A stretch of 59,988 nucleotides of DNA, filler included, from Globobulimina sp. (Eukaryota), in assembly GCA_003354225.1 (NCBI GenBank). It is 6 parts of 6 records of this genome, joined end to end, with 100 filler letters (N's around TTAATTAATTAA, not from the genome) between each part and the next. Parts side by side here need not be neighbours in the genome. Positions count along the whole stretch, not along the records: positions 10,225 to 20,259 come from PIVH01000031.1; 5 more parts are not named here. One strand, 5' to 3'. A program made the position numbers and the translations under genes. The notes beneath the pieces are model-generated. The model had not been told where the DNA came from. It saw only the letters and a program-made list of their open reading frames with translations, and did no database searches. Below are positions 6,764-38,881 of this stretch, one piece after another. Positions within the stretch are counted from its first letter, which is position 1. The number at the start of each line of letters is the position of its first letter.

Positions 6764-7078
6764 TGTTCCGTCGAAATTAACAAGGGCTACATTTTCACAA
6801 AATATTATATTGTGCGGGATAAGAATCTGACGAGTTGAGTTTTGAACAACTGTCTGGACACTGCCAGTGTAGCTGAACGATATATTCCAAAAGATAACAC
6901 ATTATAAGTTGTATACATTTTACTCAATTATCTGAGAAACGCTTTGCAAATCTAGAACAAAGTCAGAACAAATTTATAATTGAATTTTCGGTATACAAAC
7001 AGGGGGGTTATCTTTTGGAATATATCGTTGAGTGTATGATTATGCATCATCCAAGAGATTAAATAAAAAAAACTCAAT

Positions 7079-10124: not shown

Positions 10125-10224
10125 NNNNNNNNNNNNNNNNNNNNNNNNNNNNNNNNNNNNNNNNNNNNTTAATTAATTAANNNNNNNNNNNNNNNNNNNN
10201 NNNNNNNNNNNNNNNNNNNNNNNN
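10125..10224. other. Artificial contig linker
   Basis: N44-TTAATTAATTAA-N44, giving stops in all six frames. Confidence 0.99.
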
Positions 10225-10277
10225 GTGGACAACAAGAATTACAAGATTTTAATTTCAACATTGCCGCAGATCACAAA

Positions 10278-11305
10278 ATGAGTTTATGTGGTTGTATTGC
10301 GGTAAACCATTTTAAATGGTTTTATCGCATATTACAATACATGCCAATGTGGACAGTTCAAATACCAAATCCTGCGAATAAAAAATTACAGTCTCGATCT
10401 AGAACGCGGAATTGGTTGGCATTACTGTTATTGGTTGCAGCTTTAGGATATATTAGTTTTGTGTGGATGATTTGGAACGGCAGATTACACCAAGCATCAT
10501 CCATTGGTTATGTACAAACATTATTGTTTAACGTAATATACTCATCATGGCAATTTTTATTCTTACTAACCAGATATTGCGGTGTTTTACATTTTGCAAA
10601 TTGTGCGTGCTTTCAATGCATATTTAGCAGACGTGACAACAAACAAAAATGTGATATAAATGATGACATCGACGACAAAAGTTATACACTGCATCAGTAC
10701 GGGTTTCAGTATGATTGGCTTTTCGGTGGAGTTTATTCTGATAAATATGCAGAATGCAAATTATATTATTCACAACAATCAAAATTTACAAATAAGGTGA
10801 TAATGTGCTTCATGTTTGTATACATTGTATGTATTGGTTGCCATTCTTCGACATATTATTATTATGATTTTCTTCAACATTCATGGATGGAAGGAATAAA
10901 TGATGCGATGGCAGTATTTTTTTTATGGATTCCAAATTGTTTAACACAAATGTGTCCAATGTTAATTTTGTTAAAATATCAAATTTCATTATATACATTA
11001 AATGTATATTTGAAAAAAAAAGAAGCAACTTCAACTGTATTGGATTTGTATGCAAAATTATTCATTGCATTCGAAAAAGATATCGATTTTTGGGTATATT
11101 ATGTAAGTGGGCAAATATTTTGTTTTGGTCTCCATACATGGTCGAGTATAAATGAACTGTTTCATGACAATTTATATTGGTTCAATACCTTCCATATTCT
11201 TATTTGTATCCCGTATTATTTTGCTCCCGTTTTTTTTTTGATTGTAATATCACATAACTTATCTGGTGAATTTTACAAATTTATGCAAAGAGTGAGCTAT
11301 AAGAT
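10278..11305 (+). pseudogene. Multi-pass membrane protein (7TM gustatory-receptor-like), 5' part; interrupted by retrotransposon 1
   Basis: About six hydrophobic helices. The frame runs into the TSD at 11295-11305 and resumes in frame after 19838. Confidence 0.7.
11295..11305 (+). repeat. Target-site duplication, left copy (A)GCTATAAGAT
   Basis: Identical to 19828-19838; 10-11 bp, with the first A ambiguous against the poly(A). Confidence 0.93.
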
Positions 11306-11329
11306 CTTCAAAACTTTAAGAAATCAATT
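11306..11329 (+). repeat. Terminal inverted repeat, left arm (24 bp)
   Basis: CTTCAAAACTTTAAGAAATCAATT is the exact reverse complement of 19791-19814. Confidence 0.95.
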
Positions 11330-11794
11330 CTCTTTAGAACCCCCCCGGAGGCTAACATTTTCAATCCTTTCGTTTCTGTTTCAGGCAAAAAGAAGTCTAA
11401 ACAAACTCACCCTAAAACAGGTAGTCAGACGTTACTCGAAATTGCCTCGGCAAAAGAGAACGCCATAAGACTTATAAAAAATGATAAAAAATGTATATTC
11501 ATTCGACTTACGCAATTAAATATTAACACAAAAAAAGAATACATAACAAATCAATTATTTTATGATTATGAGTTATTGCAGCTGAGAAACATGACATTTT
11601 GTTTGAAAATGTCATGTAATTCAGCTGCATTTACATTTACATTTATATTTATTTTAAACATGTTCAATTCGTTGAATTGCATTATATTGATTGTGATAAA
11701 TTACCCATCCATAAATATAGAAAAAAGCACACATTATTTTGTATACTATATAGAGCCGCATTCCCGCACTATTATTAACAATACGCATTATCGC

Positions 11795-14700
11795 ATGGAA
11801 CAAAAATACTCAGCAAATAAGCCTGAAGTGACAAAGACAAACAACAACAACCAATCAACATCGACCAATGATAAAAGTGACATGAAGAATATTATCAAAT
11901 TAGTATTAAAACCGTCATTGCAGCAACGTAGAAATGTGCCGAAAGAATTGCAGAAATTGTATCATACGAATGATAGTATTGATTTATCAGAGAATGGACA
12001 CATTATCGTGAAGTTTGCAGGGGAATTATGCAAAGTGAATGAGAATCCCGTATGGGATAAGCCGACCAAAGATTTTATTGTTAAAATATTCAGAATGAGA
12101 GCGATGTTCTTTTATCAATTGGATTGGGAGCGAAATATTAAAATTCGCCCAAATAATAATAACAACAACAATAATCAGCCAGAGTTTAAACGTGCTATCC
12201 CCCCGTCGCCAGCCAATACATTTACGAAAAGCGATGGATTTTTTCCTCCATTGATAGATAGGAATAGAGCATCCCTTAAATTATCCCAATATCCCTCTCC
12301 TAAATCCGCCCATAGAATGCGATTAAATAATAAACAAAAAAGATCAAAGAATTCAAGTAAAAATAAGAAAATGAACAAACAATCAAGAAATGAAGACAGA
12401 ATTAGAAATATTAAACGTACCAAAGCGTGCGTCAACTACGAGATCAAAGATAATGGCGATTTTTGGGATTTCCGCTTTGAAAAAATCGATTTAAAGACAG
12501 CTGCGGTGGATTTAGAAGAATTTAAGGCGACGTGGGACGAAGTAAATATTTGTAAAATTAGCAATATGTCGATAACTCCGAATTCGTTGTATATTTATAC
12601 GCCAATATCAATATGGAGAGATTTATTAATTGGTAAATACCCAGATTATGATCGTGCGATTTCGCTGATTTATCAAAATGCAGCGATGGATCATCCAATC
12701 CATCAGTTGGTAATACATGAATTGATACCATCCACGGAAGTGATTAATAACAAAACAAAATTAAGATTGACCCCAGTAAATGGCTCCCGCACTGAAGATA
12801 TATTAATGGATCTTGACTGGTCTGCGCCGTACCCAATGTTCCAGAATAATGCAATCCAAATTGAGTATATTCCAAAGATTGTTGAATGGAGACCGGTAAA
12901 TATGGGAATGTTCAATGTCCCACTCAATATATTATACAACAACTCATTGCCGAGAATATTAAATCAGAAAATAACGGCGAAAATTAATACACATTTTTTG
13001 CTGTATACAATAATCCATGCAATGTTGAACGATTATGATGTACGGAAAATTAAATATAAATCGCTATTATTCCAATTGATTAAACCGTACGAGATCAAAG
13101 TTGAGCGATTAAATGCGATCCATTCAGAATTATGCGATAAGAAATCGATGCCGTCGGCGATGAATGAAGACGAGAATAAAAGTCCGAGCTTAAATAGTGA
13201 CAACGGACAAAGCGATGAAGACCAATGGTACGATAATAAAATAAATGAAATTAATGCAAAATACACAGAAACGATCCAATTAATTGAAAAGTCGATGATA
13301 ACGAATACGGACATTATCGATACAAACAAAATAACGATCCGCCGTTTCTGCAAAGCGACATTCTTCCATTTACAGAATGAGACCGGCAGCGATCTCCCAA
13401 TCCCATCTTGGGTGCGATCTGAAGCTTGGTTTAAAATGATTCGATTGGTCGTTGCAGTAAATTGTATACAAAGTGTTGGCAGACCGCAACGAACAGAATT
13501 AGAATATGAAGGGAAAAATGTGTATCTTACACCAATTACAGTGACCGGAATTAACCCAAAATTATTAGTTGGTGAGGAATCTATGGGTTTGCCGGCAATG
13601 AAATTCAGACTTGGCACTATTACAAAATATTTGGTGTTGGTAAACAACGATTTTTTTACGGATTTTATGCTGACGGCAGGAAATTGTGTATGCGGCAAAA
13701 AATATCCCGGCCATAATGCGTGCCCAGAACAGGCCAACTATTTGGCGAAGGAAATAAATCGATGCAAACAGAGATATAACGCTGGAAAAACAACCAAGAA
13801 GAAGATGGAGGAGGATATTAAGAAAATTGTTGCCCTCAAATGTATAACGTGTACGTATTGGGGACACATTGGTAAAGGATGCAAAAGCAAGGATGTACGG
13901 TGCCTTTGCTGCTACGAATCAGAACATATCCGAACATTGAATATAGAAATTTGTGATGATTCAAAGAATATCCGCGCGCTATTTACGAATTTATTTGATA
14001 TTATGACGAATTTTGAAGAGATTGAATTCCAAAATATTGATCATTATAAATTGATTAAATGCACAGTAAATCAAGATTTAGCCTTGTCGGATTTGTATAA
14101 AGTTATAGTTTCCAACGCAACCAATCAACAAATCCAATTAATTGAATCAAAACAAGATGCCAGTTCAGAGCTGCAGTCCTATTCAGACGCTGTGAAATCG
14201 AATGAAAATGACAGTGAAATATTGAATGATGACGTTGCGAAACCAGGAAATGCAGAAAATGACCTATTTATTACAGACGATGCATTAAAAAACCATGGAT
14301 TGAACGAAAAAGATTTTGATAATGACATTGATTCGGATTTATTTGATGAGGAAAAAACAATTACAATCGAAAAAGACACAATGACGCCCCAGCTGCCAGG
14401 GAAAGATACGAATTATATCCCAGACCCACAATGCATCCCATTCGTCAGCAGCCAGAGTCCCCCAAATGACAATGACACGAATATGAATATTAATATGGGT
14501 ATGATGACAGCGCCGCAATCCGTACAATTTAAACCAGGGACCAACGAATTCTCCAACGACTCACCAACAACGTCACAGACAAATAAATCGCCGCAATATT
14601 CATTCGACGAAATCCCATTAAAACAATCAATCACAAATCAAAGAGGTAGGAAACCACAACCGATGCGCTTACAAATCACGCCAAACCTCCCCAAATATAC

Positions 14701-14899
14701 TAAAGCGCGCAGAGCAAACTCCAGCACATTCCATGGACTGTCTATCAATGATCGAATAGAAACGGTGAGTGCGGAGAAGAAGATATTAAATGAATTACCA
14801 TTTAAAAATATGAGAAATGGATCAAAGAGAGGCAGATTAAGATTAAAGGCAGTATCCACGAATCAGAATAATAATAATAATGATAAACAAGAAAGCTAG
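11795..14899 (+). CDS. Retrotransposon 1 ORF1, gag-like nucleic-acid-binding protein
   Basis: Zinc knuckles CVCGKKYPGHNAC, CITCTYWGHIGKGC (CX2CX4HX4C) and CLCCYESEH...C. Start uncertain: the frame is open from 11576 and ATG 11795 (MEQKY) was chosen. Confidence 0.85.
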   Translation: MEQKYSANKPEVTKTNNNNQSTSTNDKSDMKNIIKLVLKPSLQQRRNVPKELQKLYHTNDSIDLSENGHIIVKFAGELCKVNENPVWDKPTKDFIVKIFRMRAMFFYQLDWERNIKIRPNNNNNNNNQPEFKRAIPPSPANTFTKSDGFFPPLIDRNRASLKLSQYPSPKSAHRMRLNNKQKRSKNSSKNKKMNKQSRNEDRIRNIKRTKACVNYEIKDNGDFWDFRFEKIDLKTAAVDLEEFKATWDEVNICKISNMSITPNSLYIYTPISIWRDLLIGKYPDYDRAISLIYQNAAMDHPIHQLVIHELIPSTEVINNKTKLRLTPVNGSRTEDILMDLDWSAPYPMFQNNAIQIEYIPKIVEWRPVNMGMFNVPLNILYNNSLPRILNQKITAKINTHFLLYTIIHAMLNDYDVRKIKYKSLLFQLIKPYEIKVERLNAIHSELCDKKSMPSAMNEDENKSPSLNSDNGQSDEDQWYDNKINEINAKYTETIQLIEKSMITNTDIIDTNKITIRRFCKATFFHLQNETGSDLPIPSWVRSEAWFKMIRLVVAVNCIQSVGRPQRTELEYEGKNVYLTPITVTGINPKLLVGEESMGLPAMKFRLGTITKYLVLVNNDFFTDFMLTAGNCVCGKKYPGHNACPEQANYLAKEINRCKQRYNAGKTTKKKMEEDIKKIVALKCITCTYWGHIGKGCKSKDVRCLCCYESEHIRTLNIEICDDSKNIRALFTNLFDIMTNFEEIEFQNIDHYKLIKCTVNQDLALSDLYKVIVSNATNQQIQLIESKQDASSELQSYSDAVKSNENDSEILNDDVAKPGNAENDLFITDDALKNHGLNEKDFDNDIDSDLFDEEKTITIEKDTMTPQLPGKDTNYIPDPQCIPFVSSQSPPNDNDTNMNINMGMMTAPQSVQFKPGTNEFSNDSPTTSQTNKSPQYSFDEIPLKQSITNQRGRKPQPMRLQITPNLPKYTKARRANSSTFHGLSINDRIETVSAEKKILNELPFKNMRNGSKRGRLRLKAVSTNQNNNNNDKQES

Positions 14900-15305
14900 T
14901 TTTAGTCACTTAATAACAGGCAACCAACTAAATAATAAATTATGTATTTATTCCCTTATGTTACATATTAACTACTTAATAAATAATGCCGCCTTAAATC
15001 TTCTTATTTTTGTTATATTTTTTGCTTTTTTGCTTTTTAGTGTTGGATCGATAGAAGGAGAATATTTTATATTTTCGGACTTACATAATGAGTGTTCTAC
15101 TCCTTGTTGTCCGTATATTAAACATATAAAATCCTCTACTATCATCCAACTGTTTTGTTTTCAGATATGTTTAAATCGAAGACCAATAATAAAATTTCAA
15201 TTAATATTCTGTAACGTTTATTCTTACAAATTGACTGAAAAACTACAACAAAGTACCATAAACGAAAAAGAAATGCGTGCTTTTGCAATTCTAAAAAATG
15301 GTTAA
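14880..15305 (+). CDS. Small hydrophobic ORF bridging ORF1 and ORF2 (hypothetical)
   Basis: 141 codons; overlaps the ORF1 stop by 20 nt and the ORF2 start by 8 nt; one hydrophobic stretch. Confidence 0.3.
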   Translation: MINKKASFSHLITGNQLNNKLCIYSLMLHINYLINNAALNLLIFVIFFAFLLFSVGSIEGEYFIFSDLHNECSTPCCPYIKHIKSSTIIQLFCFQICLNRRPIIKFQLIFCNVYSYKLTEKLQQSTINEKEMRAFAILKNG

Positions 15306-18300
15306 CTATAAAATAATGCAATACAATATATGTGGGATAATAAACCCGTCCAGAATGTCGGTAGAAGATAAGTGCCGGAAAGTGTATCAAATAATGCTGT
15401 CGAAACAAATTGATTTCCTCCTGTTACAAGAATGGAGCGCCACGCTACGCTATCCACTCAAAACAGGAGATACCCATTACATTGACAAAAATAATAAAAA
15501 ACACCCAATCAAATTCCCAATCCAATTCTTTCCAAATTATAATGTCCACTTTACAGGGACAGAAACGGCGGTATTATACCGCAGAACACTCAATATTACT
15601 CCCCTACAAATGCCACAAAATTACAACCATATAAACAGAACAAAGAACTGCCACATAACCACCATAATACTACACAGCGGCGACCGAGACATAGGAATCC
15701 ACTCTGTTTATAACTGTCCCAATAACCCTAATATAGACCAACTGTTTGACTACCCCCTAACAGTTGACAGCAATATATTTGCTGGAGACTTCAATATACA
15801 GAATGAGCAATGGGGAAGCAACAGATCCACGGTCGAGTCAAACAATTTCATCGAAGGAGCCAATGCTTCAAACCTACAAATTCTAAACATGAATAATCCA
15901 TCGTTTACCCATATCCATAAATCATACGGTACCAAATCATGCATCGATCTAACGTTACTTTCCAATGACTTGAAACATATCCAATGGAATATCCTCCATT
16001 CAATGTACGATAAAAATTGCTCGGACCATATCCCGATTATAACAGCCTTTGAAGTTTCCCATGATTTTGGTTTCGAAGAAAACAGAAAAACGTGGAACTT
16101 GGCGAGTAAGTCAAAGTGGAGTAAATATACAGAAACACTTAGACAGACGTTAGAAGAAACAGTATTTGACCAAGACCCGAATATATATACGGAACAACTA
16201 ACATACCTAATCCTATATGTTTCGGAACAGACGATTGGATATAAAACTTATTATCGCGGACATAAACCATGGTGGAATCGTAAAATAAAGAAACTGAAGA
16301 AAAAGTGCAAGAGACTCAGAAGACGACTACAAAGAATGAAGAAAAACGCAAAGCGCTTAAGATTGGATTTCCATACTTTCCCGAGATATAAACGGGAAAA
16401 ACAAAAACTAAATAAATTCCAATCTATTAAACATAAAAATATAGCTATCGCTAAAACAAAATATAATGATAAAATAAATCGATATATCCAAACATGCAAA
16501 GATTATGGACGCAGATTCTGGCGCACCATAACCAATAATAAATCAAATCAAACAGACACGAATAATATTCCTCCACTGAACTATCATAATAAAAACAATA
16601 TAACGGACCCGAAGGAACAGACGAAGGCGTTGCATGAAGCCATGACCAGACCGCCCAAACCTCCGTCGAATCCGACCCATGATACATGGCATAATTATAT
16701 TAATGAATTTGTCCCAAATTTTCTTGCAAACCATCGCCAAAATCCTGACCAACAAAATAATAATATCCAAAACATAATAAATGATAAAAAAAGTCAGAGC
16801 CTTCTTTCTAATATAAACCGTCCCTCAGATTTCAATACAAACATTGTATTAAATGCTCCGAATTACGAAACATTGAATGGCCCTATTCTAAAATATGAAA
16901 TACATAAAGTGATAAAACGGCTGGATACACATAAAGCATTTGGACCGGATAGAATCCATAATCAAATGCTTAAACACGGCGGAGACTCTCTGATAAACTG
17001 CCTCCTCCCCCTATTCAATAAATGCATGGCCGATGGCGTATTCCCTGGCTATTGGAATTTCGCCCATATCCTCCCAATACCGAAGCCAATGAAGGACCAT
17101 AGTAACCCAAAGAACTACCGACCCATTGCGGTGTCTTCTTGCTTGGGTAGGGTTTTCGAGAAAGTCTTAGCAAACAGAATACAGCACTTTTGCGTGACAC
17201 ATAAAATATTTAAAAACTATCAATGCGGATTCCAAATAAACAGATGCTGCGATGATGTGCTTACCACATTCATCGCCGACATACAAACGTCCTTTGATAT
17301 GGTCAGTGACACTGACGTTGTATTTACGGACTTTTCCAAGGCATATGATAGTGTGTGGCATAACGGATTGCTCTACAAATTAATCCAAAATAATATCACT
17401 GGAAACATATTAAATGTGCTGGCATCTTTTATACAAACAAGGTATACAAAAGTCATTGCAAAAAAAGCCGAATCGAATTGGGTGGCACAACCGATCGGTG
17501 TCCCGCAGGGCTCCGCACTGTCTCCTATCCTATACATTCTCTTTACAAATGATTACAAAATACAGCACCCAAACTTGATACACTTTGCCTGCTTTGCGGA
17601 TGACACGGCGTTTTGGACCAGCCCTGGTTCCAAAGACCCGCTGAGATACAAATTCCTCCAAAATGAGTTGAATAATTTTAGTGCATGGTGTGAGAGATGG
17701 CAGCTCGCCATAAATCCTTCAAAGTGTTCCTCCATAAACTTCTCCCATAGTAATCCTATAAAATACTATCCTAAATATAAAAATATAGTCAATCCGAATA
17801 CAAATAAATTAGAGCAAATTAGCAAATATTCAATCCAATCCAAACCAATAAAATATGATAAAGTTGTGCGATATTTGGGCCTATGGTTTGACGAAAGATT
17901 AAATTTCCAGGCGCATATTGCCAAAATCCGATCAAAAACGCTTAATAATTATTGGCGATTATTCTTTACAATGAAATCCGGTATAAAATTGACTCCATTG
18001 TCAATTTCTATGTTATATAAATCATTGGCGAGATCCCGAATGGAATATGGAATATCGCATTACTATCAATATGACACTAAAAATGTACTCAAAACACTGC
18101 AAAATAAATTCCTCCGATTGGCGATTCCCTGTCGACTGGATTCACCTATGGATATTGTACAGTTTATGTTGAAAATTGAACCAATCGAACAGAGAGCCCA
18201 TTACTTAACGATACGTCAATTAGCCCGGGCCTATTATAATGATAACTACCATCCCCTCCATAGAACGTTCAATACATTGACAAAATACATAAATATCATT

Positions 18301-19647
18301 CGAAGGCATAAATATAGGAAACAGCGTAAAAACAAAAACCAAATATCCCCTAAAAACAATAACAATAAATTCATAAACCTACAGAAAAATTCATTAATAA
18401 TCGCATCCAATTTCTGCCAAAATGATGGGACAATCAAAGCTCTGACACTGAACATAAACCAACTAAAAAAGGCCCAAGTCACTGCATCCCCGACATATAA
18501 TATAGCAAATGTCCCAACAAACTTTGAAGTAATTACAACAACAAATAATCCCAAACAACCTAATAATGATAAAATAATCATCGCCTTCACCGATGGATCG
18601 TGCGACCCAAACCCAGGTAGAGGAGGAGCAGCGGTGGTAATTCCTTCCCAGTTATCCCACCCCCAATGCTATAAAAAAGTGTTCTATTTCAGAATACCTG
18701 TAACAATCACAACAGCTGAGATTGAAGCAGTACACATAATCCTTAATTACGTAATAAATAATACAATAAATAGACAAATACAGTACAAAATATATATTGA
18801 TAATCTACCATTACTCCAATTCATTGAAGGTTCCACCTATCCGAAATACCATGAAACAAAAATATTGATTGAAAATATTTTCCTTAAACTTACACAAATC
18901 CAACAAATAAAACCAAATACTTACATATCATTCATCAAAATAAAGTCACACAGTAATAATAAATTTAATGACGACGTTGATAGATTGGCCAGATTCGCAG
19001 CACAGCATACAAATTATGACCCAAAATTGTTTAACGAAATCTCATATAATACGACAGTTACTCAACTACATAAACAAATAAATTACAGATGGAGCCAATC
19101 TTGGCTTCGTAGGAATACACAACGACACCAAGATAGTTACCAGATGTACCATAATAACCCAAATCTACATAATAAACTGAATAAATTGATAAAAAGAATA
19201 AACAGAGATGAAGCGGCTATGATGAACCGCCTCATTTCTGGACATATAGAATTGAATAGTTTCCTGTTTAACCATAAATATAAGGATTCTGATAAATCTG
19301 TCATTGATTCCCCAAAATGTATTCAATGTAATAATAATTCCAATGAAACCATTCGCCATTACATATTACAATGCCCGGCGTACCAAAACCAAAGAACCAG
19401 GCTAATAGATTCATTATGCAACACCTGGAAGGATTTCAAGGATGGTAACAATATAAATATAGATAACCTATTTTATCCCTACTCCATCCGCCGCCCTCCA
19501 GACATTGACACTGAACTGAAGCTTGAAGTACAAGTAACTATCTGGAAAAACCTCCTTCAATACATAAAAGAAACCAAACGATTTAATTACCTATACCAAG
19601 TGAACCTAATGAATATATGCCCGATCATTTATGATCAAGGAATTTAG
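15298..19647 (+). CDS. Retrotransposon 1 ORF2: AP endonuclease, reverse transcriptase, RNase H, CCHC finger
   Basis: APE: YNICG, LLQE, GDFN, IDLT, SDH. RT: GPDRI, YRPIA, DFSKAYD, GVPQGSALSP, FADD, YLG. RNase H: FTDGS, AEIEA, YIDN, IKSH, NDDVDRLA. Zinc finger: CIQC...ETIRHYILQC. Confidence 0.96.
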   Translation: MVNYKIMQYNICGIINPSRMSVEDKCRKVYQIMLSKQIDFLLLQEWSATLRYPLKTGDTHYIDKNNKKHPIKFPIQFFPNYNVHFTGTETAVLYRRTLNITPLQMPQNYNHINRTKNCHITTIILHSGDRDIGIHSVYNCPNNPNIDQLFDYPLTVDSNIFAGDFNIQNEQWGSNRSTVESNNFIEGANASNLQILNMNNPSFTHIHKSYGTKSCIDLTLLSNDLKHIQWNILHSMYDKNCSDHIPIITAFEVSHDFGFEENRKTWNLASKSKWSKYTETLRQTLEETVFDQDPNIYTEQLTYLILYVSEQTIGYKTYYRGHKPWWNRKIKKLKKKCKRLRRRLQRMKKNAKRLRLDFHTFPRYKREKQKLNKFQSIKHKNIAIAKTKYNDKINRYIQTCKDYGRRFWRTITNNKSNQTDTNNIPPLNYHNKNNITDPKEQTKALHEAMTRPPKPPSNPTHDTWHNYINEFVPNFLANHRQNPDQQNNNIQNIINDKKSQSLLSNINRPSDFNTNIVLNAPNYETLNGPILKYEIHKVIKRLDTHKAFGPDRIHNQMLKHGGDSLINCLLPLFNKCMADGVFPGYWNFAHILPIPKPMKDHSNPKNYRPIAVSSCLGRVFEKVLANRIQHFCVTHKIFKNYQCGFQINRCCDDVLTTFIADIQTSFDMVSDTDVVFTDFSKAYDSVWHNGLLYKLIQNNITGNILNVLASFIQTRYTKVIAKKAESNWVAQPIGVPQGSALSPILYILFTNDYKIQHPNLIHFACFADDTAFWTSPGSKDPLRYKFLQNELNNFSAWCERWQLAINPSKCSSINFSHSNPIKYYPKYKNIVNPNTNKLEQISKYSIQSKPIKYDKVVRYLGLWFDERLNFQAHIAKIRSKTLNNYWRLFFTMKSGIKLTPLSISMLYKSLARSRMEYGISHYYQYDTKNVLKTLQNKFLRLAIPCRLDSPMDIVQFMLKIEPIEQRAHYLTIRQLARAYYNDNYHPLHRTFNTLTKYINIIRRHKYRKQRKNKNQISPKNNNNKFINLQKNSLIIASNFCQNDGTIKALTLNINQLKKAQVTASPTYNIANVPTNFEVITTTNNPKQPNNDKIIIAFTDGSCDPNPGRGGAAVVIPSQLSHPQCYKKVFYFRIPVTITTAEIEAVHIILNYVINNTINRQIQYKIYIDNLPLLQFIEGSTYPKYHETKILIENIFLKLTQIQQIKPNTYISFIKIKSHSNNKFNDDVDRLARFAAQHTNYDPKLFNEISYNTTVTQLHKQINYRWSQSWLRRNTQRHQDSYQMYHNNPNLHNKLNKLIKRINRDEAAMMNRLISGHIELNSFLFNHKYKDSDKSVIDSPKCIQCNNNSNETIRHYILQCPAYQNQRTRLIDSLCNTWKDFKDGNNINIDNLFYPYSIRRPPDIDTELKLEVQVTIWKNLLQYIKETKRFNYLYQVNLMNICPIIYDQGI

Positions 19648-19790
19648 AGTACTTTTAAGTACTTATCTTCCAAAATATTTTATATTTTACTTTTGTTCAT
19701 TGGTCTCACAGCCAAATAAAAAGACTTGTATCCTTGTTTGTGTATACTATTTATTGTAGTGTTCCTCACTTGTGTATGGGTGATATCTTT

Positions 19791-19814
19791 AATTGATTTC
19801 TTAAAGTTTTGAAG
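19791..19814 (+). repeat. Terminal inverted repeat, right arm (24 bp), directly before the poly(A)
   Basis: AATTGATTTCTTAAAGTTTTGAAG, followed by A14. Confidence 0.95.
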
Positions 19815-19827
19815 AAAAAAAAAAAAA

Positions 19828-20001
19828 AGCTATAAGATGACTGAGGACCGTATTTCATTGCAATTATATAGCTATGTATCGTAAAATAAATTAATTTTTA
19901 AAATCACAGGCGTTGAAATGAGTTATTGGAATTTATCCAAACTAATTATCGCATTTATTATCAGCAAAGCTGCATCTTATTCTTTTACAAATGTAACATA
20001 A
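19828..20001 (+). pseudogene. Right TSD copy and 3' remainder of the interrupted 7TM gene
   Basis: Reads SYKMTEDRISLQLYSYVS*NKLIFKITGVEMSYWNLSKLIIAFIISKAASYSFTNVT*, with an internal TAA at 19882-19884. Confidence 0.7.
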
Positions 20002-20259
20002 AAAAGACATTAATGTACGATGCATAGTAAAATAGTGTAACAAAAATGTGCATCGATTATTGTGGTTTATATTGTTGGAGTTAACGTTTGTTTAGGGATA
20101 TAAAATAAATATTTATGGGATATATAAGCAATATTGATATCACATGGACATTGTTTTGAGATTTGTCATTATAAAGTGATAATATGACAATTTTTCTATC
20201 TTTGGTGTTATTGATGCTATGAACTTCTAACTTTGTAAATTTGTTAAATACTTTATTTG

Positions 20260-20359
20260 NNNNNNNNNNNNNNNNNNNNNNNNNNNNNNNNNNNNNNNNN
20301 NNNTTAATTAATTAANNNNNNNNNNNNNNNNNNNNNNNNNNNNNNNNNNNNNNNNNNNN
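20260..20359. other. Artificial contig linker
   Basis: N44-TTAATTAATTAA-N44. Confidence 0.99.
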
Positions 20360-22709: not shown

Positions 22710-23104
22710 TTTCTGTAGGTAGGAAGGGCATATATTTAATTATATTAAGTGCTTAGTATAGTATAGATTGTGAAACATGGTTCATTGTTCTGCCAAAAAC
22801 TGTGTTTTCGGAAACACGTTACTGTACTCATCTAGAAACGAAAAAGTTGAACATGAATAATATACTAATATTCAAGAGCATGCGGTCATTTCTCCATAAG
22901 TGTTCTATTTTTTCTATCCTCGCACATAAAGGGGATCTTCCAACAAATTGTACACTGAGTGCGAGGATACAAAAAATAGACCACTTATCGAGAAATGACC
23001 GCATGCTCTTATACTTTTACAGCTATAAAAGTCGAAAACCGATCACCAAAAACATGTGACCAGAAACAAACAAACGAAAATGGAAAATATAATACAGTAA
23101 ATTG

Positions 23105-30251: not shown

Positions 30252-30351
30252 NNNNNNNNNNNNNNNNNNNNNNNNNNNNNNNNNNNNNNNNNNNNTTAAT
30301 TAATTAANNNNNNNNNNNNNNNNNNNNNNNNNNNNNNNNNNNNNNNNNNNN
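30252..30351. other. Artificial contig linker
   Basis: N44-TTAATTAATTAA-N44. Confidence 0.99.
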
Positions 30352-30386: not shown

Positions 30387-32696
30387 ATGGATGATTTCTC
30401 GCAAATCCCATTCCCAAAATCGCCAGAACTAAATCGTATCATTAATACTTGTAATATTCGCCCAAATCCATTAAAAAGAAATTATATTGAATCCACGCTT
30501 TTAGATACCGGCAATCCGCAGTTCAAAACCACCAAATTATTTTCCATCCAGAATCCCGGCGCTAACATCCAGACATTATCGTATATCAAAGGCATAGAAA
30601 ATGTCCCTGCCTCAGCCGATACCATTAAAATTAAATGTACCTCGGAGACTGTCCCAGACACTGTAACCTCGTTCAGTGAGTATGATGATTTGAAAATCGA
30701 CTTCAATCAACGCCATATTAGATTTAATCGCCGCAGAACCATTACCAAAACCAAAGCGTATGTCGAAGAGACCCGCACTGATAAAATGATCCGCAAATAT
30801 AATGACGGACAAATCAACCGTAACCGCAAATGGATTGCCAATGCAGCCAAATACCATAATGAGATCGGTGTAAACTTCCATGTTCGCATTGTATTCGGCA
30901 AAGTATTCATTAACGATCGCATATCGGACCGAATATGGATCCACAAAGAGGAGGACTTTATTGCTGCCCTGAATGATGCCGATATCATTAAAACGAGAGC
31001 TGAATTATTACCCACTGTGTCCCCATTAACTGTGTTATTTGCCTCCTCATCATACTCCTATTATTATGCTGATAAATCATTTTATAACTCATTAGAGCGC
31101 ATCGATGGCGACACCCAAGGAATCCTGACGTATATCAGTGCATTACACGGCAGAATTAAAAAAACCGGATCCGGTTTCAGCTACGTTGCGACTGACCAAC
31201 AGTTGCATGGATATATTAACAGCATCATCAACGAGCCGCTGCCATTAATATACAAAGTAAAATTCAATAACTATCCATTACTAATGACTGTAGCCGACAA
31301 CGTTGCAGAATATCATGATGGTGACTATTATGGGCATGCACGTGGCTGCAATTCGATGGCGTTTCCTGTCAAAAAAACGGGTGTTTATTTTGGGTGCCGC
31401 AAGAAATTAAAACGAATATTCAACTTAACTGTATTAGACAATATGGACACACTCAACAGATACCAGGCACATACCATTGATTTAGGATACATTTGGGATG
31501 TCTTAGGGTATCACATCACTAATCCGCGGTGCCTGAAATTGACTTTGATGAAATGTAATGCCGTAACTGCCAAAGCATGGTATTGCTCCACAAAGCACTC
31601 GCTTTTACGTGGAAACATCTTGGATTTATACCATTTATCGCCGTATTTGAACCGCAAAGAAGTAGATTATGTGTTAAGTAATGTTGCGCCAATCGAGCCT
31701 GACATCCATGTGATAAATTACGCGCATCCATATCAAATGCATTCGTACGCAAATACCTTCAAATTTCAATTTAAAAACACACCGCGCTATCTTTTAACTG
31801 GTGTTCCTGCCGCGGACTTGCATGATAATAATTATTTTTATGCGAACAAAGCGTTGGCGTCAAACTCGTTTATTGTTGGTGGCACAGAGGTACATATTAC
31901 GGAGACATACCGTAATGACATTATTGCTATGTCGACGATGCATTTACAATTAGCAAATAAATGTGTTTATGACCCATCATATTTTTGCCTGACACCAAAT
32001 CACTGTAAATCATTCGATGCGAAATTAGAAGAATTAAAAATGAAAATTGAATCTGATATGGCCAGAGATGGCAAGACAGCGAATGTCATCACTACGACCC
32101 TTAATAAATTGCATAAAGCCACAATCCAATCGAAATGCGGCCATTTAACCTCAAAATGCAAAGGCTGCCCCACGATACGACCCCAATTAGAGGATGGATT
32201 TAAAGGCATTCCTGGCTTAGGAAACGCACCGAGTGAACACACATTGATCACTTATTATCACTCCTTTGCTATATCGCGCATTAAGGACCTTACAATCGAT
32301 GGTGTGCCGGTCGTGTGGAGTGAAATGAATACGATGGATCAGTTAGGTTTGACTTTCCATGAAGAAATCGCTGCGAAATTCCAGAATAATGATATTGGCA
32401 ATCTGTTATTTCATAAAATATTGACAATCTCCGCCCAAAATGACCTGATTTTGAATGAAAACGCGTTGGAAACCCTGCTCATTAAACAGAATGAAGGCGT
32501 CACTCTACGTATTCGCACGAAAGTAATCAAGAAATATGCCATCCAACACGACGATGACTCGGATGACGACGACGATGATCACACAAATAATGACAATAAA
32601 AACCATAATGACGATGACGATGTGGATGTGGACAATGCGATAATGAGCGGAGATAATGTCAATGATGAACAATATGACTCCGTCGATGAACCATAA
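30387..32696 (+). CDS. Retrotransposon 2 ORF1 (probably 5'-incomplete), no recognised domain
   Basis: 769-aa ORF ending 5 nt before ORF2; Cys/His clusters (FCLTPNHC, KCGHLTSKCKGC) and an acidic tail. Confidence 0.65.
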   Translation: MDDFSQIPFPKSPELNRIINTCNIRPNPLKRNYIESTLLDTGNPQFKTTKLFSIQNPGANIQTLSYIKGIENVPASADTIKIKCTSETVPDTVTSFSEYDDLKIDFNQRHIRFNRRRTITKTKAYVEETRTDKMIRKYNDGQINRNRKWIANAAKYHNEIGVNFHVRIVFGKVFINDRISDRIWIHKEEDFIAALNDADIIKTRAELLPTVSPLTVLFASSSYSYYYADKSFYNSLERIDGDTQGILTYISALHGRIKKTGSGFSYVATDQQLHGYINSIINEPLPLIYKVKFNNYPLLMTVADNVAEYHDGDYYGHARGCNSMAFPVKKTGVYFGCRKKLKRIFNLTVLDNMDTLNRYQAHTIDLGYIWDVLGYHITNPRCLKLTLMKCNAVTAKAWYCSTKHSLLRGNILDLYHLSPYLNRKEVDYVLSNVAPIEPDIHVINYAHPYQMHSYANTFKFQFKNTPRYLLTGVPAADLHDNNYFYANKALASNSFIVGGTEVHITETYRNDIIAMSTMHLQLANKCVYDPSYFCLTPNHCKSFDAKLEELKMKIESDMARDGKTANVITTTLNKLHKATIQSKCGHLTSKCKGCPTIRPQLEDGFKGIPGLGNAPSEHTLITYYHSFAISRIKDLTIDGVPVVWSEMNTMDQLGLTFHEEIAAKFQNNDIGNLLFHKILTISAQNDLILNENALETLLIKQNEGVTLRIRTKVIKKYAIQHDDDSDDDDDDHTNNDNKNHNDDDDVDVDNAIMSGDNVNDEQYDSVDEP

Positions 32697-32701
32697 TCTC
32701 T

Positions 32702-35700
32702 ATGTTTAGCTGCCCCAACAATGGCTGTATCAGCCCAATCGTCATAAATTATTACAATTTGCGCCTAATTCCTATGCCTTCCTACCTTTGTTTTGTAGTA
32801 TTATTACTATATTTGTATCAAATTAAATGCATCCATACCGCCATTAGCTCTCTTTTTTCCTTATTTATATGCACTGCCAATTTCTCTTTTTTCTCATACC
32901 CATTAATAATAAATCACCTTTTTTCTCTATTTCTAACCAATACTACCTCTTTTTTCTCCAATTTATTACCTTTATTTACCATTTTTTTCTTATTTTTATC
33001 TCATTTTAGTTCTTCTTTTTTCGATAATACGTTCATTGATTTGCATAATGTGAATATTGTCACAACCAATGCACTGAACCATTCTCCTTATTTTAAATTA
33101 CATTCAAAACCAATTCTTGTTTTAATCACTCTCAAAATAAAACATAGACAAAACAGTAGTGACCAAAAGCAATTCCGCTCTGCACTTGACACGCTGCAAA
33201 ATAACAGATTCTACCTCGGAATCAAGACAACGTACTCCATCCATAACTATTTTAATCATTACATGAACGTCATTCAAACTGAGTGTGTAACGGGATACAT
33301 GATCAGCACTAAGGATCATAAACACACACAATCACTGTATCGCTTTATTGAGCGATATCAACACAGACTGCGGAAAATCTATCGATATCTCAAAATCATA
33401 ATGGATAAATCATTGAGATGGATCACTGTGCGTATGCCACAGCATCGATATCACCCGATCAAATCCTATATTATAAATCACTTTCCATCACATATACCCA
33501 TTCGGTTTAAGAAGATACCATATCTCAATGAAACCGCTGAGCTAACACTTTACAGACAGCTCCATGCATTCAGTAAAAGTCCTGCAAAAGTTTTGGCTCT
33601 GTACGACTTTATACTCAAAAACAACTATGTAGAAAACGACGTGATTTTGAAACAAGCAGTCGCAAATAACAACTACCACATAAAATGGTTTGTCCCCACA
33701 GATAAAAAAGTACATGACATTAGAAATCATTGGCAAGGCACACATAACAGTTTAAATGTGAACATACACTCCGCAAATCGCGATAACTGGATAAATAATC
33801 AAAAAAACAATGCAGTTATCTCGTTAAACCAAATATTTAAGCAAGCGGTAAACAAATATCACACTACAAACACACAACTCCGTAATTATAAAAACTATTT
33901 AATAAATAAAGTAATACAGGGACACGTCAACAACGCAGCGCAATCCGATCATGATATTCCTGATATAATCCTAAAATATCCATTCATGCAAATATATGCA
34001 CCATCCATTGAACCAATAACATCGACCCAAATCAAATTGAAAAGCATGAAAATTGGATTTATGAACATCAATGGAAGTGCCAAAACTAAAATAAATCAAA
34101 TGCATCCATATATGCAGCAACTTGTAACCCATCACAAACTTGACATAATACTCTTAATTGACACCAGAACAAAACATCGACCAAATTGGAGACTACCTGG
34201 CTACAAATTAATGGCACATAAAGCGCCCATAGCCACAAATAATCTGCAGAATGTTGGAGGAATCCTAATTTATTACCGATATAACTTGAAAAATAAAATC
34301 AATTTAATCAAAAAAACGAGAGGACATAATACAGCATGGATCTCCGTGAAAATCAAAAACCAAATCAAACCCACATACATTGCCATAAATTACACTCGAA
34401 CATATAAACCAAATTTGAGTGATCGCAGTCTCAAATTTTATAACTCCCTCACTGACGATATAAATAATTACAAATCACAGTGCCATAATATGTACGTAAT
34501 TGGAGATTTTAATGCCAGAATGGGCTCTCTGACAATGGACCATAACACAAATGGCCACTACCGATACATGAAAATGATGCTTGATCGCACCAACCTAAAA
34601 ATAGCCAATCCACAATTTGCTCCTAAATTCCTTACCTGTTTGGCAAAAGGCGCCCAAAATAGTGGTGGTTCAATTATAGATTATGTAATCACCAACAAAC
34701 TAAGCTCCATTAAATCGATGCACGTTGATACTCATCCGGTCTTTATGGACCATAGACCAGTTGTGTTCACCTTAAATAACACCAAATGTGAGACCACCAC
34801 CATTGATAAACACCTAATACTAAGAACTGGCGCCCCCAACACCGCACTCATAAAAATACATGATAAAATAATAAAAAAATCCACAAAATACCTCAAACAA
34901 TTTACAGAGAACATAAATCAACCTCGCAACAAAAATGAACGACAATTCATCTCCCACATCACCTCCATCACTACGGCCTACATTTTGCATCTTGCCTCAA
35001 TCAAAGCGTTCGGTTTGGCGGATTTCAACACTATGAACAAATGGGCAACGCTGTCACGGAAACAAATCACATTAAACATAAAGCAGAGATTGTTAATGAA
35101 TACCAATAATAATACCAATGCGGGCAAAGAACTAATGGCAGCGGCTGAGGCAGAATATATTCAGAATAAACAGAATACCTTGACACAAAACACCATAAAA
35201 TTCAGCAATCTTAACCATTCCAACAAATTGAAGACCTTTAAAACGTATAACAAAAACAAGGATTTCATTTTGGATGAACCCTTCTTGCATTATAATAATA
35301 CCATAATGGATAAAAATGAGGCACTGTCGCAATTTTTCTGCAAAATAAATGGTCCCATAGATGACCCCAACGATAATCCCCATATACAAAACATAAATGA
35401 TTTCCAAAATGCACTCAATATGCCGTCGAACAACCATTTAACTTTCATTCCACAGATACCCACAGATGACCTAAAAATAACACATGAAACATCACCAATT
35501 CCTACAATCACAAATATTGAAATGAATGTAGATTATAAAGAGGAAGAGGATGTATTACAAACCCCGCACTACGACCCCAACTATGTCCCAATAACACAAC
35601 CCATCATGAACGAATTATATGCGTTGGAACATAGTGACCAAACCTATAACAGTGATGATGATGTAATTTTAGATATGACCTCCCAAACACTGCACTCCCC

Positions 35701-38700
35701 GCTGACTTGTACCAACTTAACTGAGGAAGATGAAAAAAAGGAGACAGAGGATGCCCCAAACTGCCAAAATACTCCAAAAACAAACAAAAAAGCTAAATAT
35801 CGCTCCATTGAATTGGCCATTTCCTATGCAAATCAAAACAGTGCTCCAGGATATGATGGAATAAAATCGGTACACCTCAAAACCAACGGAAACTCCATAA
35901 ATGAATTATTATGTACAATGTTCAATGTTTGGAATAAGTCGTTCTTCATTCCATATTACTGGAGACTCGGCACTGTGATACCAATATTAAAAACAAAAGA
36001 GGGCAACACGCCAAACCAATACAGACCCATTACATTATTACCTATCATTTTTAAGACATACGAAAGACTCATCCTCTGGGAAATGAGCATAAAACATAAA
36101 TTCAGAAGAAATCTACATACGTTGCAAGGCGGTAACAGATCCAGAAGAGGTGTGCCAGAACAGATTGGCTGTATCAATTTAATTGCAGAAACTGCCAAAA
36201 TGCGAGAGATTCCCCTTTATTGTGCCCTCCTTGACATCCGTAAGGCGTTTGACACAGTTTGGAGAAAAGGGCTCCTCTTCAAACTAAACAAGCAATTCAA
36301 AATACCACTAAATCTCTGCAAAATAATTCAGGCAATCTATGATAACACACAGTCTGCCATCAGAGATATACCCTTCATAACAAACAAATTCATGCTTCAT
36401 AATGGTGTGCTGCAAGGATCAGTCCTTTCACCTGTCCTCTACGCAGCATTCCTAAATGACCTAATTGAGGAACTACAAAATTCCAAATGTGGCGCCGCTT
36501 CGCCTGACCCCAATGAACTAATTGCCTGCACTCTGTACGCCGATGACATCATACTTACTGCGAATAAAATCTCCCACTTAAATAAGCTCCTAAAAATCTG
36601 CCAGAACCACAGCAACCATTGGAAATACCGATTTAATAATAAAAAATCTAAAACAATCATTTATAATGATAATACATTGAACAATAACAACATAAACACA
36701 TATAATATCAATGACATAATGCTAATAAATCATGAATACCATAATATAAATGCGATAAATAACAACAAACCCGCACCGATGATATTAATACAAAAACCTA
36801 TCAATCACAAAGTGTTGGCGATAAACATAAACAATACACTGCAATCCTATGATACCGATGAGATCCCACAAAAACACTTACAACGCTTTATAGACCATAT
36901 CAAATTCTACGATGATATCAGTAATAAACCATATCCGATAATGTGGGATAATATACGCTACGACCGAGACTTTGCACCGTCAGTAATGCATCTAAAGCTG
37001 AGACTCAATGGAGAAAGTCTACACTGTACAACTTTCATCAGATATCTAGGTGCTATGTTGTGCAGCTACGACTGCTCCAACTTGGTGTCGACGGAGTATA
37101 CAAATGCGGCGTTCCTTAAAAAACTTGACTCAAAAGCTCACATTTTGTCGACCTTAGACTTTAACCACATTTATATTTCACTCGCTGACAAAATACGAAT
37201 ACTGAAGACGTTCTACCTAGTCTACACAGAAATATTTGCACAAATTCTTGATTGTGACAAAATAAAACTCAAACAAGCCACAGACAAACAACTCAAAACA
37301 ATCCGTATACAAACAAAAATAAAAGACTTTGTTCCCGCGCAGCTTTACCTTTGGGCAGGAATCCCCACACCATATGAGAGATGGGTATCACTCAAAATCT
37401 CATTTTATTGGAAATTAATAAAAGGAGGAAACATTTCAATGATGCACCAATGGGCAAAACTCCCCCATATCCATCACCACAAACTCTTTAAACAATATAT
37501 TGATTTGAAAAACAAATGGCTGCCGCCAGTACGCCAAACCACAAACAATCGCATAACTTGGACAAACCCATTTGATTCTGTCACCCATTCACACGAACTA
37601 AAACCACTAATTGTAAAAAATCAACACATACAAATAATCAATAATTTAAATCATTACCATCCAATCAAAATCCTAAATCATGTCACAGATAATTACAAAC
37701 CGATGAATAGCTACGAACTCAACGAATTGGCAGATTACGTAAAGAATAATATGATAACTGTATATAGAGAGATATTCTATAATTTCAATACTAAAAATAA
37801 TTACTGCCACCTCTGCCATACTCGTACAAATATACCAATTGAATACCACTTAGCAGTGCTCTGCCCAAACCTAAACACCTTGAGACATGAATACTGGAAT
37901 CATGCCTCTGCAATATTTGCAAAAAGCGGCGCGGCAATAAACAAAATACATCATCATCTTTACATGCAACGACTAATTGAAATGTGCGAAAATGTCAATA
38001 CACAAAAAGCCCAATTCTGGAAAATCCTATGTGGTGCAAATATATACAACACTGACACCAATAATTTCACCTACATACATAAACAAATAAACATTAACAC
38101 AAATAAACATACCTTATACAGAGAGGTAATCTCCCAAACACACCGCTGGCTCTCCCACACACTCGACATAAACAATGGCAATAGCACCATAAGACGCATC
38201 CGATCCAAACACAACTTAGTCCCCTCAAAAATGATAATATTCCACACACGCAATGACAATTTCCATGAATGGAGATATTACCAACATAAAATCAACAGTA
38301 ATGACCTAATAATCGCCACAGACTCATCTCGCGATCCACAAACAAACACTGCAGGCATAGGCATCTGCATCATAGACAGAAACAAAATACATTGCTTCAC
38401 ACAACCTATTGGCCCGCAGTCTAATCATTATGGCGAACTCTATGCCATTCACAAATCACAATTCCTCCTCAATTACTGCAAAATAGATACTTCCAATCGG
38501 AGAATCTTAATATTTACGGACTCTTTATTCAACTTCCTTCCCCTCATAATCACTCCAAAAAATCCAAATAACAAACCACTATCCATCCTATTTAAGAACA
38601 CACAAAATTATATCAAACGTAAACAAATCATATTATGGAAAGTAAAATCACATACCAAACCCCACCAACAACCCTTTAATATGATTGCAGATATCCTAGC

Positions 38701-38881
38701 AAATATTGGCCGACAACACCCCTACAATTCTAATGTAATCACCACAAACTATAATTCAATCAGATATGCAAAATATAAATCATTCCTCTATCCTCAGGGT
38801 ATCATACCCAATGACCTTTACTCTCTCGCCGGGATGTTCAAGCAATCGGTGAGTATGGAGCCAGACTTAGATCCTGGCTGA
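32702..38881 (+). CDS. Retrotransposon 2 ORF2 polyprotein (2059 aa)
   Basis: APE: FMNING, GDFNAR, IIDY, MDH. RT: APGYDGI, YRPITL, LDIRKAFD, GVLQGSVLSP, YADD, YLG. Zinc finger: CHLC...YHLAVLC. RNase H: ATDSS, GELYAI, FTDS, VKSH, NMIADILA. Confidence 0.93.
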   Translation: MFSCPNNGCISPIVINYYNLRLIPMPSYLCFVVLLLYLYQIKCIHTAISSLFSLFICTANFSFFSYPLIINHLFSLFLTNTTSFFSNLLPLFTIFFLFLSHFSSSFFDNTFIDLHNVNIVTTNALNHSPYFKLHSKPILVLITLKIKHRQNSSDQKQFRSALDTLQNNRFYLGIKTTYSIHNYFNHYMNVIQTECVTGYMISTKDHKHTQSLYRFIERYQHRLRKIYRYLKIIMDKSLRWITVRMPQHRYHPIKSYIINHFPSHIPIRFKKIPYLNETAELTLYRQLHAFSKSPAKVLALYDFILKNNYVENDVILKQAVANNNYHIKWFVPTDKKVHDIRNHWQGTHNSLNVNIHSANRDNWINNQKNNAVISLNQIFKQAVNKYHTTNTQLRNYKNYLINKVIQGHVNNAAQSDHDIPDIILKYPFMQIYAPSIEPITSTQIKLKSMKIGFMNINGSAKTKINQMHPYMQQLVTHHKLDIILLIDTRTKHRPNWRLPGYKLMAHKAPIATNNLQNVGGILIYYRYNLKNKINLIKKTRGHNTAWISVKIKNQIKPTYIAINYTRTYKPNLSDRSLKFYNSLTDDINNYKSQCHNMYVIGDFNARMGSLTMDHNTNGHYRYMKMMLDRTNLKIANPQFAPKFLTCLAKGAQNSGGSIIDYVITNKLSSIKSMHVDTHPVFMDHRPVVFTLNNTKCETTTIDKHLILRTGAPNTALIKIHDKIIKKSTKYLKQFTENINQPRNKNERQFISHITSITTAYILHLASIKAFGLADFNTMNKWATLSRKQITLNIKQRLLMNTNNNTNAGKELMAAAEAEYIQNKQNTLTQNTIKFSNLNHSNKLKTFKTYNKNKDFILDEPFLHYNNTIMDKNEALSQFFCKINGPIDDPNDNPHIQNINDFQNALNMPSNNHLTFIPQIPTDDLKITHETSPIPTITNIEMNVDYKEEEDVLQTPHYDPNYVPITQPIMNELYALEHSDQTYNSDDDVILDMTSQTLHSPLTCTNLTEEDEKKETEDAPNCQNTPKTNKKAKYRSIELAISYANQNSAPGYDGIKSVHLKTNGNSINELLCTMFNVWNKSFFIPYYWRLGTVIPILKTKEGNTPNQYRPITLLPIIFKTYERLILWEMSIKHKFRRNLHTLQGGNRSRRGVPEQIGCINLIAETAKMREIPLYCALLDIRKAFDTVWRKGLLFKLNKQFKIPLNLCKIIQAIYDNTQSAIRDIPFITNKFMLHNGVLQGSVLSPVLYAAFLNDLIEELQNSKCGAASPDPNELIACTLYADDIILTANKISHLNKLLKICQNHSNHWKYRFNNKKSKTIIYNDNTLNNNNINTYNINDIMLINHEYHNINAINNNKPAPMILIQKPINHKVLAININNTLQSYDTDEIPQKHLQRFIDHIKFYDDISNKPYPIMWDNIRYDRDFAPSVMHLKLRLNGESLHCTTFIRYLGAMLCSYDCSNLVSTEYTNAAFLKKLDSKAHILSTLDFNHIYISLADKIRILKTFYLVYTEIFAQILDCDKIKLKQATDKQLKTIRIQTKIKDFVPAQLYLWAGIPTPYERWVSLKISFYWKLIKGGNISMMHQWAKLPHIHHHKLFKQYIDLKNKWLPPVRQTTNNRITWTNPFDSVTHSHELKPLIVKNQHIQIINNLNHYHPIKILNHVTDNYKPMNSYELNELADYVKNNMITVYREIFYNFNTKNNYCHLCHTRTNIPIEYHLAVLCPNLNTLRHEYWNHASAIFAKSGAAINKIHHHLYMQRLIEMCENVNTQKAQFWKILCGANIYNTDTNNFTYIHKQININTNKHTLYREVISQTHRWLSHTLDINNGNSTIRRIRSKHNLVPSKMIIFHTRNDNFHEWRYYQHKINSNDLIIATDSSRDPQTNTAGIGICIIDRNKIHCFTQPIGPQSNHYGELYAIHKSQFLLNYCKIDTSNRRILIFTDSLFNFLPLIITPKNPNNKPLSILFKNTQNYIKRKQIILWKVKSHTKPHQQPFNMIADILANIGRQHPYNSNVITTNYNSIRYAKYKSFLYPQGIIPNDLYSLAGMFKQSVSMEPDLDPG

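Follow-up and report, generated by a model that had tools for sequence, protein, structure and literature searches.

A full-length non-LTR retrotransposon from Globobulimina sp. with its 3′ tip repeated, in perfect inversion, at the 5′ end

How a long interspersed nuclear element (LINE), that is, a retrotransposon without long terminal repeats (non-LTR), acquires the second strand of its complementary DNA (cDNA) and forms its 5′ junction is still not understood, as far as the available portions of two recent accounts of the process go (PMC13486585, PMC6895275). The closest described systems are L1 insertions that contain inverted material. In the part of Meyer et al. 2010 available (PMC2837659), classical L1 twin priming is described as inverting a stretch that lies further upstream in the RNA, accompanied by an internal deletion and by truncation at the 5′ end, and L1 loci that start with a 5′ poly(T) are explained either by variants of twin priming or by ‘dual priming’, in which an overhang of the top strand primes on the poly(A) tail, a process that is postulated there and not shown. 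The DNA considered here, referred to as the window, is a stretch of 59,988 nucleotides from Globobulimina sp. (assembly GCA_003354225.1), and the contig at its positions 10225–20259 (PIVH01000031.1) carries a full-length LINE whose opening 24 bases repeat its closing 24 bases exactly in inverted orientation, an arrangement that LINEs do not normally have. This structure is real and unusual, and its generality is unproven. All positions given below count along the window, and the features of the element and its insertion site are given on the plus strand.

The element is framed by two copies of the target-site duplication GCTATAAGAT, the left at 11296–11305 and the right at 19829–19838. The duplication is perfect over 10 bp and may be read as 11 bp, as an A precedes each copy (at 11295 on the left). 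Immediately after the left copy lies the 5′ arm (11306–11329), the exact reverse complement of the 3′ arm (19791–19814), which forms the 3′ tip of the element and its last 24 nt ahead of the tail, as seen both in the repeat search and in contigs of sequencing runs. The tail itself, read directly from the sequence, is an A14 run at 19815–19828 and abuts the right copy of the duplication. The repeat search reports the inverted repeat as 25 nt with 100% complementarity (11305–11329 and 19791–19815), the 25th pair being formed by the final T of the left duplication and the first A of the tail. Among the best 25 of 83 inverted pairs, no other is fully complementary. In 100 dinucleotide-preserving shuffles of the region 11000–20200, perfect inverted repeats whose arms are separated by 50 nt or more have a maximum length of 11–16 nt vs the 25 nt observed, and the analytic expectation for a perfect 24-nt inverted pair anywhere in this region is about 8e-7. 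The inverted terminal repeat is therefore far beyond chance. Past the arms only 12 of 40 positions are complementary, which is the chance level, so that complementarity stops sharply at 24–25 nt and the arm is a discrete unit and not the remnant of a decayed longer repeat. No long direct terminal repeat occurs among the repeat families listed for the element, and neither a second copy nor a fragment of it is present within the 60-kb window. Two claims of an earlier note on this DNA, made from sequence inspection, are thus borne out: that the 24 nt next to the left duplication and the 24 nt that precede the A14 tail are exact reverse complements, upheld by reading, repeat search and shuffles, and that this non-LTR element combines a poly(A) and a target-site duplication with perfect inverted repeats at its termini, upheld by its ends, open reading frames (ORFs) and domains.

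The abundance of the tip, the body and the arm can be followed in contigs from four public sequencing runs (X1–X4) of one sample, of which X1 shares 0.89 of sampled words and the others 0.05–0.09. The results concern the contig pieces and loose ends listed, beyond which lie a further 288 pieces and 144 loose ends, and the depths quoted are sums and not copy numbers. X1 contigs tile much of the body with 0–1 differences at depths of 8.7–15.4, the listed pieces including 11752–14020, 14606–16977 and 17747–19481, while the left flank has an X1 depth of 1.9–4.5. Across 22 body bins (11960–19263) the X1 depth spans 8.7–79.9, with 15 of the 22 at 8.7–17.8 and the remaining seven given as 25.5, 44.9, 79.9, 28, 10.4, 10.4 and 9.8. 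Read along the element, it is 8.7–17.5 over the 13 bins from 11960 to 15943 and higher thereafter (11.8–79.9), and the last two element bins reach 40 and 227. The bin of the 3′ tip (226.8) is thus the most abundant part of the element and lies far above the body.

The tip is also found away from the body. The 3′ arm is joined to at least four other upstream sequences, and contigs of X2–X4 match the element only from 19778, 19784, 19785 or 19791 to the tail and are unlike it on both sides. One of these tip contigs, present in X2 as well as in X4, has its start right at the arm boundary, 19791. The tails in the run contigs span A3 to about A26. Two X1 contigs (depths 5.28 and 7.18) contain a tail-less arm followed by collinear, same-strand segments of the 5′ region, through the joints 11329→11430 in one and 11329→11739 plus 11762→11933 in the other; these arm joints have short sides of 24–26 nt at 90% likeness and belong to a class that calls for caution. 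An X2 contig with a depth of 42.9 consists of a variant of the 3′ tip with A6, then 13 nt, then a T and the inverted arm without a T-run, and to judge from the bin depth it would span only about 25 nt of the 5′ bin. Together these contigs hint weakly at further occurrences of the tail-less inverted arm.

When metagenome contigs were scanned with an arm-derived 20-mer, five loci were returned, none of which is a LINE end. In four of the five the match grows to 23–26 nt (L001, 749–772; L003, 189–214; L004, 232–257; L005, 158–182; flank GC content 32–45%), and in three of these four it takes in the T just outside the arm, the counterpart of the tail's first A. The match in L004 reaches one base further, into the side of the 3′ untranslated region (UTR) at 19790, which suggests the 3′ tip as its source. 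The flanks of the five loci are unrelated to one another and to the window, and the loci have neither a tail nor LINE coding sequence. No second inverted arm is found near any of them with up to 6 mismatches allowed. Hairpin folding of these solo units is at chance level, and Rfam at E up to 1 places nothing on the motif in the five loci; one weak match to the snoRNA (small nucleolar RNA) family sR52 was noted in L002. The exact 23-mer was not found in the literature searched. Nor does the unit occur elsewhere in the 60-kb window, its approximately 15 host ORFs included, and for this reason the idea that the arm is a general host signal for 3′-end formation was dropped.

It is proposed, with a confidence that is evenly poised, that the arm was made during insertion, either because the 3′ tip of the RNA was reverse-transcribed from the second nick, that of the top strand, or because a short cDNA was captured. 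The 3′-OH of the top-strand nick (...AAGAT-3′) would prime on the junction of tip and tail in the LINE RNA and would be extended by only about 24 nt; alternatively, a pre-made minus-strand cDNA of about 24 nt might be captured. When the 5′ junction is sealed, the short product would become linked to the full-length first-strand cDNA at the 3′ end of the latter. These priming or capture and joining steps may be inferred from what is seen directly, namely the identity of the element, its ends, its duplication and its discrete arm. Copying that set out from the boundary of tip and tail would be expected to give a 25-nt repeat with the tail's first A in it, and a reverse transcriptase that stopped after about 24–37 nt would explain the abundance of very short 3′ pieces. 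An origin at insertion would therefore account, at about an even chance of being right, for the extra T/A pair, the discrete arm, the abundant short 3′ pieces and the tail-less solo units. Judged by sequence alone, these solo units and the X2 contig with the inverted arm may be counted in its favour, and there are weak hints that arm formation recurs in the family and is not a single event. The earlier note had offered two mechanisms, closure of the RNA into a 5′–3′ panhandle and copying of the tip onto the 5′ junction by a template switch or a second priming event. The tail-less unit of 24–26 nt with its first tail A, which recurs in unrelated contexts, is indirect evidence that tilts the balance slightly towards the second kind of mechanism. 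The note's further statement, that no duplicate of the 3′ tip arises in classical L1 twin priming, agrees with the part of Meyer et al. 2010 available (PMC2837659). That the arm is a one-off by-product of this insertion is not established, given the weak hints of other copies that carry it.

Several points weigh against an origin at insertion. No T-run separates the left duplication from the arm, where there is a single T that itself also belongs to the target; with tails that span A3 to about A26, priming would have to start exactly at the first A. The part of Meyer et al. 2010 available reports that inverted 3′ L1 sequence, sought behind the T-run, was present at none of 39 loci, all of them 5′-truncated (PMC2837659), and the present copy is full length, unlike those dual-priming loci. 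The two X1 contigs with the arm and collinear 5′ segments fit an inherited arm equally well or better. Finally, the 5′ end of a second copy has not been observed directly, and the solo units, which lack a target duplication, are tied to the element by nothing but their likeness to the arm.

The terminal inverted repeat could instead be inherited by the whole family, with master copies and their RNA already beginning with the arm; this is the main alternative and is held to be the less likely of the two. The RNA could in that case close into a perfect 24-bp panhandle between its 5′ and 3′ ends or, equivalently, the first-strand cDNA would end like the RNA, and the same recognition of template by protein could start the second strand at the top-strand nick. 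The two X1 contigs, whose depths of 5.28 and 7.18 are near that of the body (about 10), place the tail-less arm upstream of collinear 5′ segments with differing gaps, and such contigs would arise if variants of the 5′ UTR all kept the arm; the joints that support this are, however, those with sides of only 24–26 nt at 90% likeness. Also consistent with inheritance are the exact abutment of arm and duplication in a full-length copy with both ORFs intact, the predicted duplex of the two 80-nt element ends (−44 kcal/mol), and the fact that the arm is the shortest 3′ piece joined to foreign sequence (from 19791), as if its 24 nt were the unit of recognition. Against it, the tail-less solo units in contexts other than a LINE are left unaccounted for. 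Relatives give no sign of a co-varying repeat, although none has defined ends: no terminal inverted repeat is seen in two related LINE contigs, L007 and L008, the fragments in G001 and G002 contain no arm within 3 mismatches and no match to ORF1, and the other LINEs of the window are without clear ends. The two origins are compatible: a copy that gained its arm on insertion and went on to serve as a master would pass the arm on.

Two further explanations would detach the arm from the biology of the LINE. The 24-mer might be a short unit in its own right, belonging to the host or to a different repeat, such as a protein-binding site, a site of 3′-end formation or the terminal repeat of a DNA element, with the LINE merely lying between two copies. 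It does stand alone in four of the five metagenome loci with unrelated flanks, and one X2 contig shows an arrangement of arm, spacer and arm, yet the explanation is judged very improbable. On the right the A14 run intervenes between arm and duplication, and no T14 matches it on the left, which means that the duplication does not abut two repeat ends, unlike in DNA transposons; the solo units have no inverted partner nearby; the joint 11329→19791 expected of an uninterrupted arm pair is absent among the joints listed; the unit is missing from the remainder of the window and its host ORFs; and it neither forms a hairpin nor has an Rfam match on the arms or the motif. Still more improbable is an artefact of assembly or amplification, in which a chimeric 5′ junction arose in a low-coverage and probably unevenly amplified sample. 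The flank depth is only 1.9–4.8, coverage differs strongly among the four runs of the one sample (see the word shares above), and the depth and contig-end figures imply that about 11213–11295 is covered by no X1 contig, so that the 5′ junction rests on the assembly alone. An artefact would nevertheless require two precise junctions and is at odds with the perfect 10-bp duplication that flanks the element and with the continuous host ORF that its excision restores. A reverse-complemented 3′ junction would also bring a T14 with it, and this is missing at the 5′ junction.

The element is an intact and young non-LTR retrotransposon of 8.5 kb with two ORFs, and it has the features of a LINE of the apurinic/apyrimidinic endonuclease (APE) type, with APE N-terminal to the reverse transcriptase (RT) in one ORF, the A14 run and the 10-bp duplication. 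ORF and sequence inspection places the 5′ UTR at 11330–11795. ORF1 (11591–14899; 1102 aa, intact) is listed from the ATG at 11591, but its first 68 or so codons look non-coding by eye and the ATG at 11796 (Met69) is inferred to be the likelier start. A Pfam search at E up to 5 assigns it no family; it contains a single CCHC-like (Cys-Cys-His-Cys) knuckle at aa 751–764 (nt 13841–13882), and its leads in a protein atlas are weak and consist of CCHC proteins with a score of 0.78. ORF2 (15298–19647; 1449 aa, intact), defined by the ORF search and Pfam, comprises an APE domain (Exo_endo_phos_2, aa 134–248, E 2.7e-16), an RT domain (RVT_1, aa 594–847, E 8.9e-30) and, downstream of RT, an RNase_H domain (aa 1093–1235, E 3.1e-11), followed by a C-terminal CCHC-like Cys/His motif (aa 1341–1359) whose residues are invariant in four aligned relatives. 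Its nearest clusters in the protein atlas carry the same three domains (0.98). The 3′ UTR upstream of the arm (19648–19790) folds no better than its shuffles (z −1.2).

The 5′ UTR also contains a strong hairpin (11576–11630), seen as an inverted pair and in the centroid structure, with arms of about 22–29 nt and a 5-nt loop. X1 contig depth inside it (11578–11589) is about 440–480 vs about 10 for the body of the element, and the hairpin is probably a separate high-copy palindromic repeat that is either inserted in the UTR or common to it. Rfam at E up to 1 gives no match over either terminal arm; weak matches within the body of the element were to Afu_455 and MIR408.

Relatives of ORF2 are distant. 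In a collection of 5.8 billion proteins the closest, P0001, is encoded on a 9,775-bp contig and shares 46% identity, so that the lineage appears to be poorly sampled. A scan of genome contigs with the ORF2 alignment yielded seven LINE-bearing contigs in prokaryotic metagenome-assembled genomes (MAGs), all of them either too distant (24–52% identity) or too short, and a scan of viral contigs confirmed no relative; none supplied two ends that could be used for comparison. These seven (L006–L012) encode APE/RT LINE proteins and are filed as bacterial, under Chloroflexota, Leptonemataceae, a Solemya gill symbiont and others; they most likely represent eukaryotic contamination of the MAG bins. A further contig, L020, has no 3′ end in common with the element.

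The insertion breaks, in its 3′ end, a host ORF that runs from 10278 to 11305 and resumes at 19839–19886, as delineated by the ORF search and by excision in silico. Once the insertion and one copy of the duplication are removed, a continuous frame of 357 codons is obtained, whereas with the insertion the ORF has 396 codons, its last 15 being swapped for a read-through of 54 codons into the element. The host ORF has no Pfam family, and no empty-site joint is present among the run-contig joints listed. Beside the insertion, in the right flank, lies another high-copy repeat (20137–20183) with an X1 depth of about 152 and loose ends on both sides.

The contig with the element is separated from the rest of the window by linkers of the form N44-TTAATTAATTAA-N44, with stops in all six frames, which lie at 10125–10224, 20260–20359, 30252–30351, 40231–40330 and 50112–50211. 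The pieces between them are, in descending order, 10,124, 10,035, 9,892, 9,879, 9,781 and 9,777 bases long, and since the window is made of separate contigs joined together, features on different pieces are not genomic neighbours. Host contigs of the window carry long uninterrupted ORFs, and one contig encodes an ethanolamine-phosphate cytidylyltransferase, a conserved host protein that is 67% identical to an entry from the foraminifer genus Ammonia and about 50% to Reticulomyxa, which marks the host as a foraminifer-like rhizarian. Close-spaced inverted repeats occur on other contigs at 22874–23010 (52 nt, 94%, 33-nt gap), 6873–7032 (26 nt, 96%, 108-nt gap) and 1419–1508 (20 nt, 100%, 50-nt gap) and may be small foldback elements or resemble miniature inverted-repeat transposable elements (MITEs). 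There are two other LINEs in the window, both at best distantly related to the element. The one at 30387–38881 is large and unrelated; its first ORF encodes 769 aa and its second 2059 aa, the latter containing Exo_endo_phos and RVT_1, with about 470 aa before the endonuclease and about 740 aa after RT that have no Pfam family. The other (50377–59600) has an unusually long first ORF of 1895 aa without a Pfam family and then an APE/RT ORF of 1125 aa. Neither shows a long-range inverted repeat or a clear tail within the sequence present, in which clear ends are not reached.

An arm made at insertion may be the clearest natural trace to date of a reverse transcription event that started from the second nick, and if the arm is inherited, the element represents a LINE family that has evolved symmetrical ends. 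Either origin would offer a concrete and testable handle on the events of second-strand synthesis. A further step would be that the repeat is both functional and heritable, such that the cDNA ends like the RNA, one protein recognises both templates and the second strand starts from the top-strand nick as a mirror image of target-primed reverse transcription. This is considered unlikely, but were it true it would constitute a built-in answer to how LINE integration completes its second half, which is unsolved, and might also favour full-length copies. The mobile elements of Foraminifera are almost undescribed, and judging by titles no literature on their non-LTR retrotransposons was found.

By the layout of its ORFs and domains alone, the element resembles what we take to be its nearest kin, the RNase H-bearing clades of APE-type LINEs such as I, Tad1, LOA and Ingi. 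It shares with them two ORFs, the order APE, RT, RNase H and C-terminal Cys/His motif in ORF2, an A-rich tail and a duplication of variable length, and it differs in the modest identity of its nearest protein and in an ORF1 without a Pfam family. To our knowledge no member of these clades has a terminal inverted repeat, and among the titles and abstract openings of the literature searched there was no autonomous LINE with its own terminal inverted repeat or 5′–3′ panhandle. An element of the DIRS or Penelope-like type, in which a tyrosine recombinase or GIY-YIG endonuclease and long terminal repeats, inverted or split, would be expected, was rejected, as ORF2 contains only APE, RT and RNase H, ORF1 contributes nothing of that kind and the repeat is merely 24 nt long. 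Likewise set aside was a DNA transposon with terminal inverted repeats or a MITE, or a LINE nested in one, given that the A14 run separates the right arm from the duplication, none of the five solo loci has a paired copy and there is no transposase domain.

Closest to the proposed origin at insertion are the twin-priming variants and dual priming of human and primate L1 which, as far as their published description is available, likewise invoke a second RT event, one in which the top-strand nick supplies the primer on the RNA's 3′ end or tail, and leave inverted 3′-terminal material at the 5′ end of a sense insertion, between target-site duplications. Those loci are truncated and have inverted poly(T) only, whereas here there are 24 nt of unique 3′ sequence and at most one T in a full-length element; with only a single, target-derived T before the arm and no truncation, the element was not classed as a 5′ poly(T) or dual-priming locus. 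Classical twin priming, in the same available description, is similar in that two cDNAs primed from the two nicks of one target are joined inside the insertion, and different in that the present element has gained a second, inverted 3′ tip without any loss. A twin-priming inversion was therefore also rejected, the inverted part being the terminal 24 nt and the sense part being full length with both ORFs intact.

Complementary termini are found in the segments of negative-strand RNA viruses, and inverted terminal repeats in protein-primed linear replicons, and both give the two strands the same 3′ end. The likeness of the element to these systems is by analogy only, in that one recognition of template by polymerase serves both strands there. 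Retro-DNAs, which are DNA transposons retroposed by L1, combine terminal inverted repeats with a poly(A) and an L1-type duplication, according to the part of their description available. There it is the sequence of a DNA transposon that has been copied via RNA, whereas the element described here has the body of an autonomous LINE and its repeat is its own 24-nt tip.

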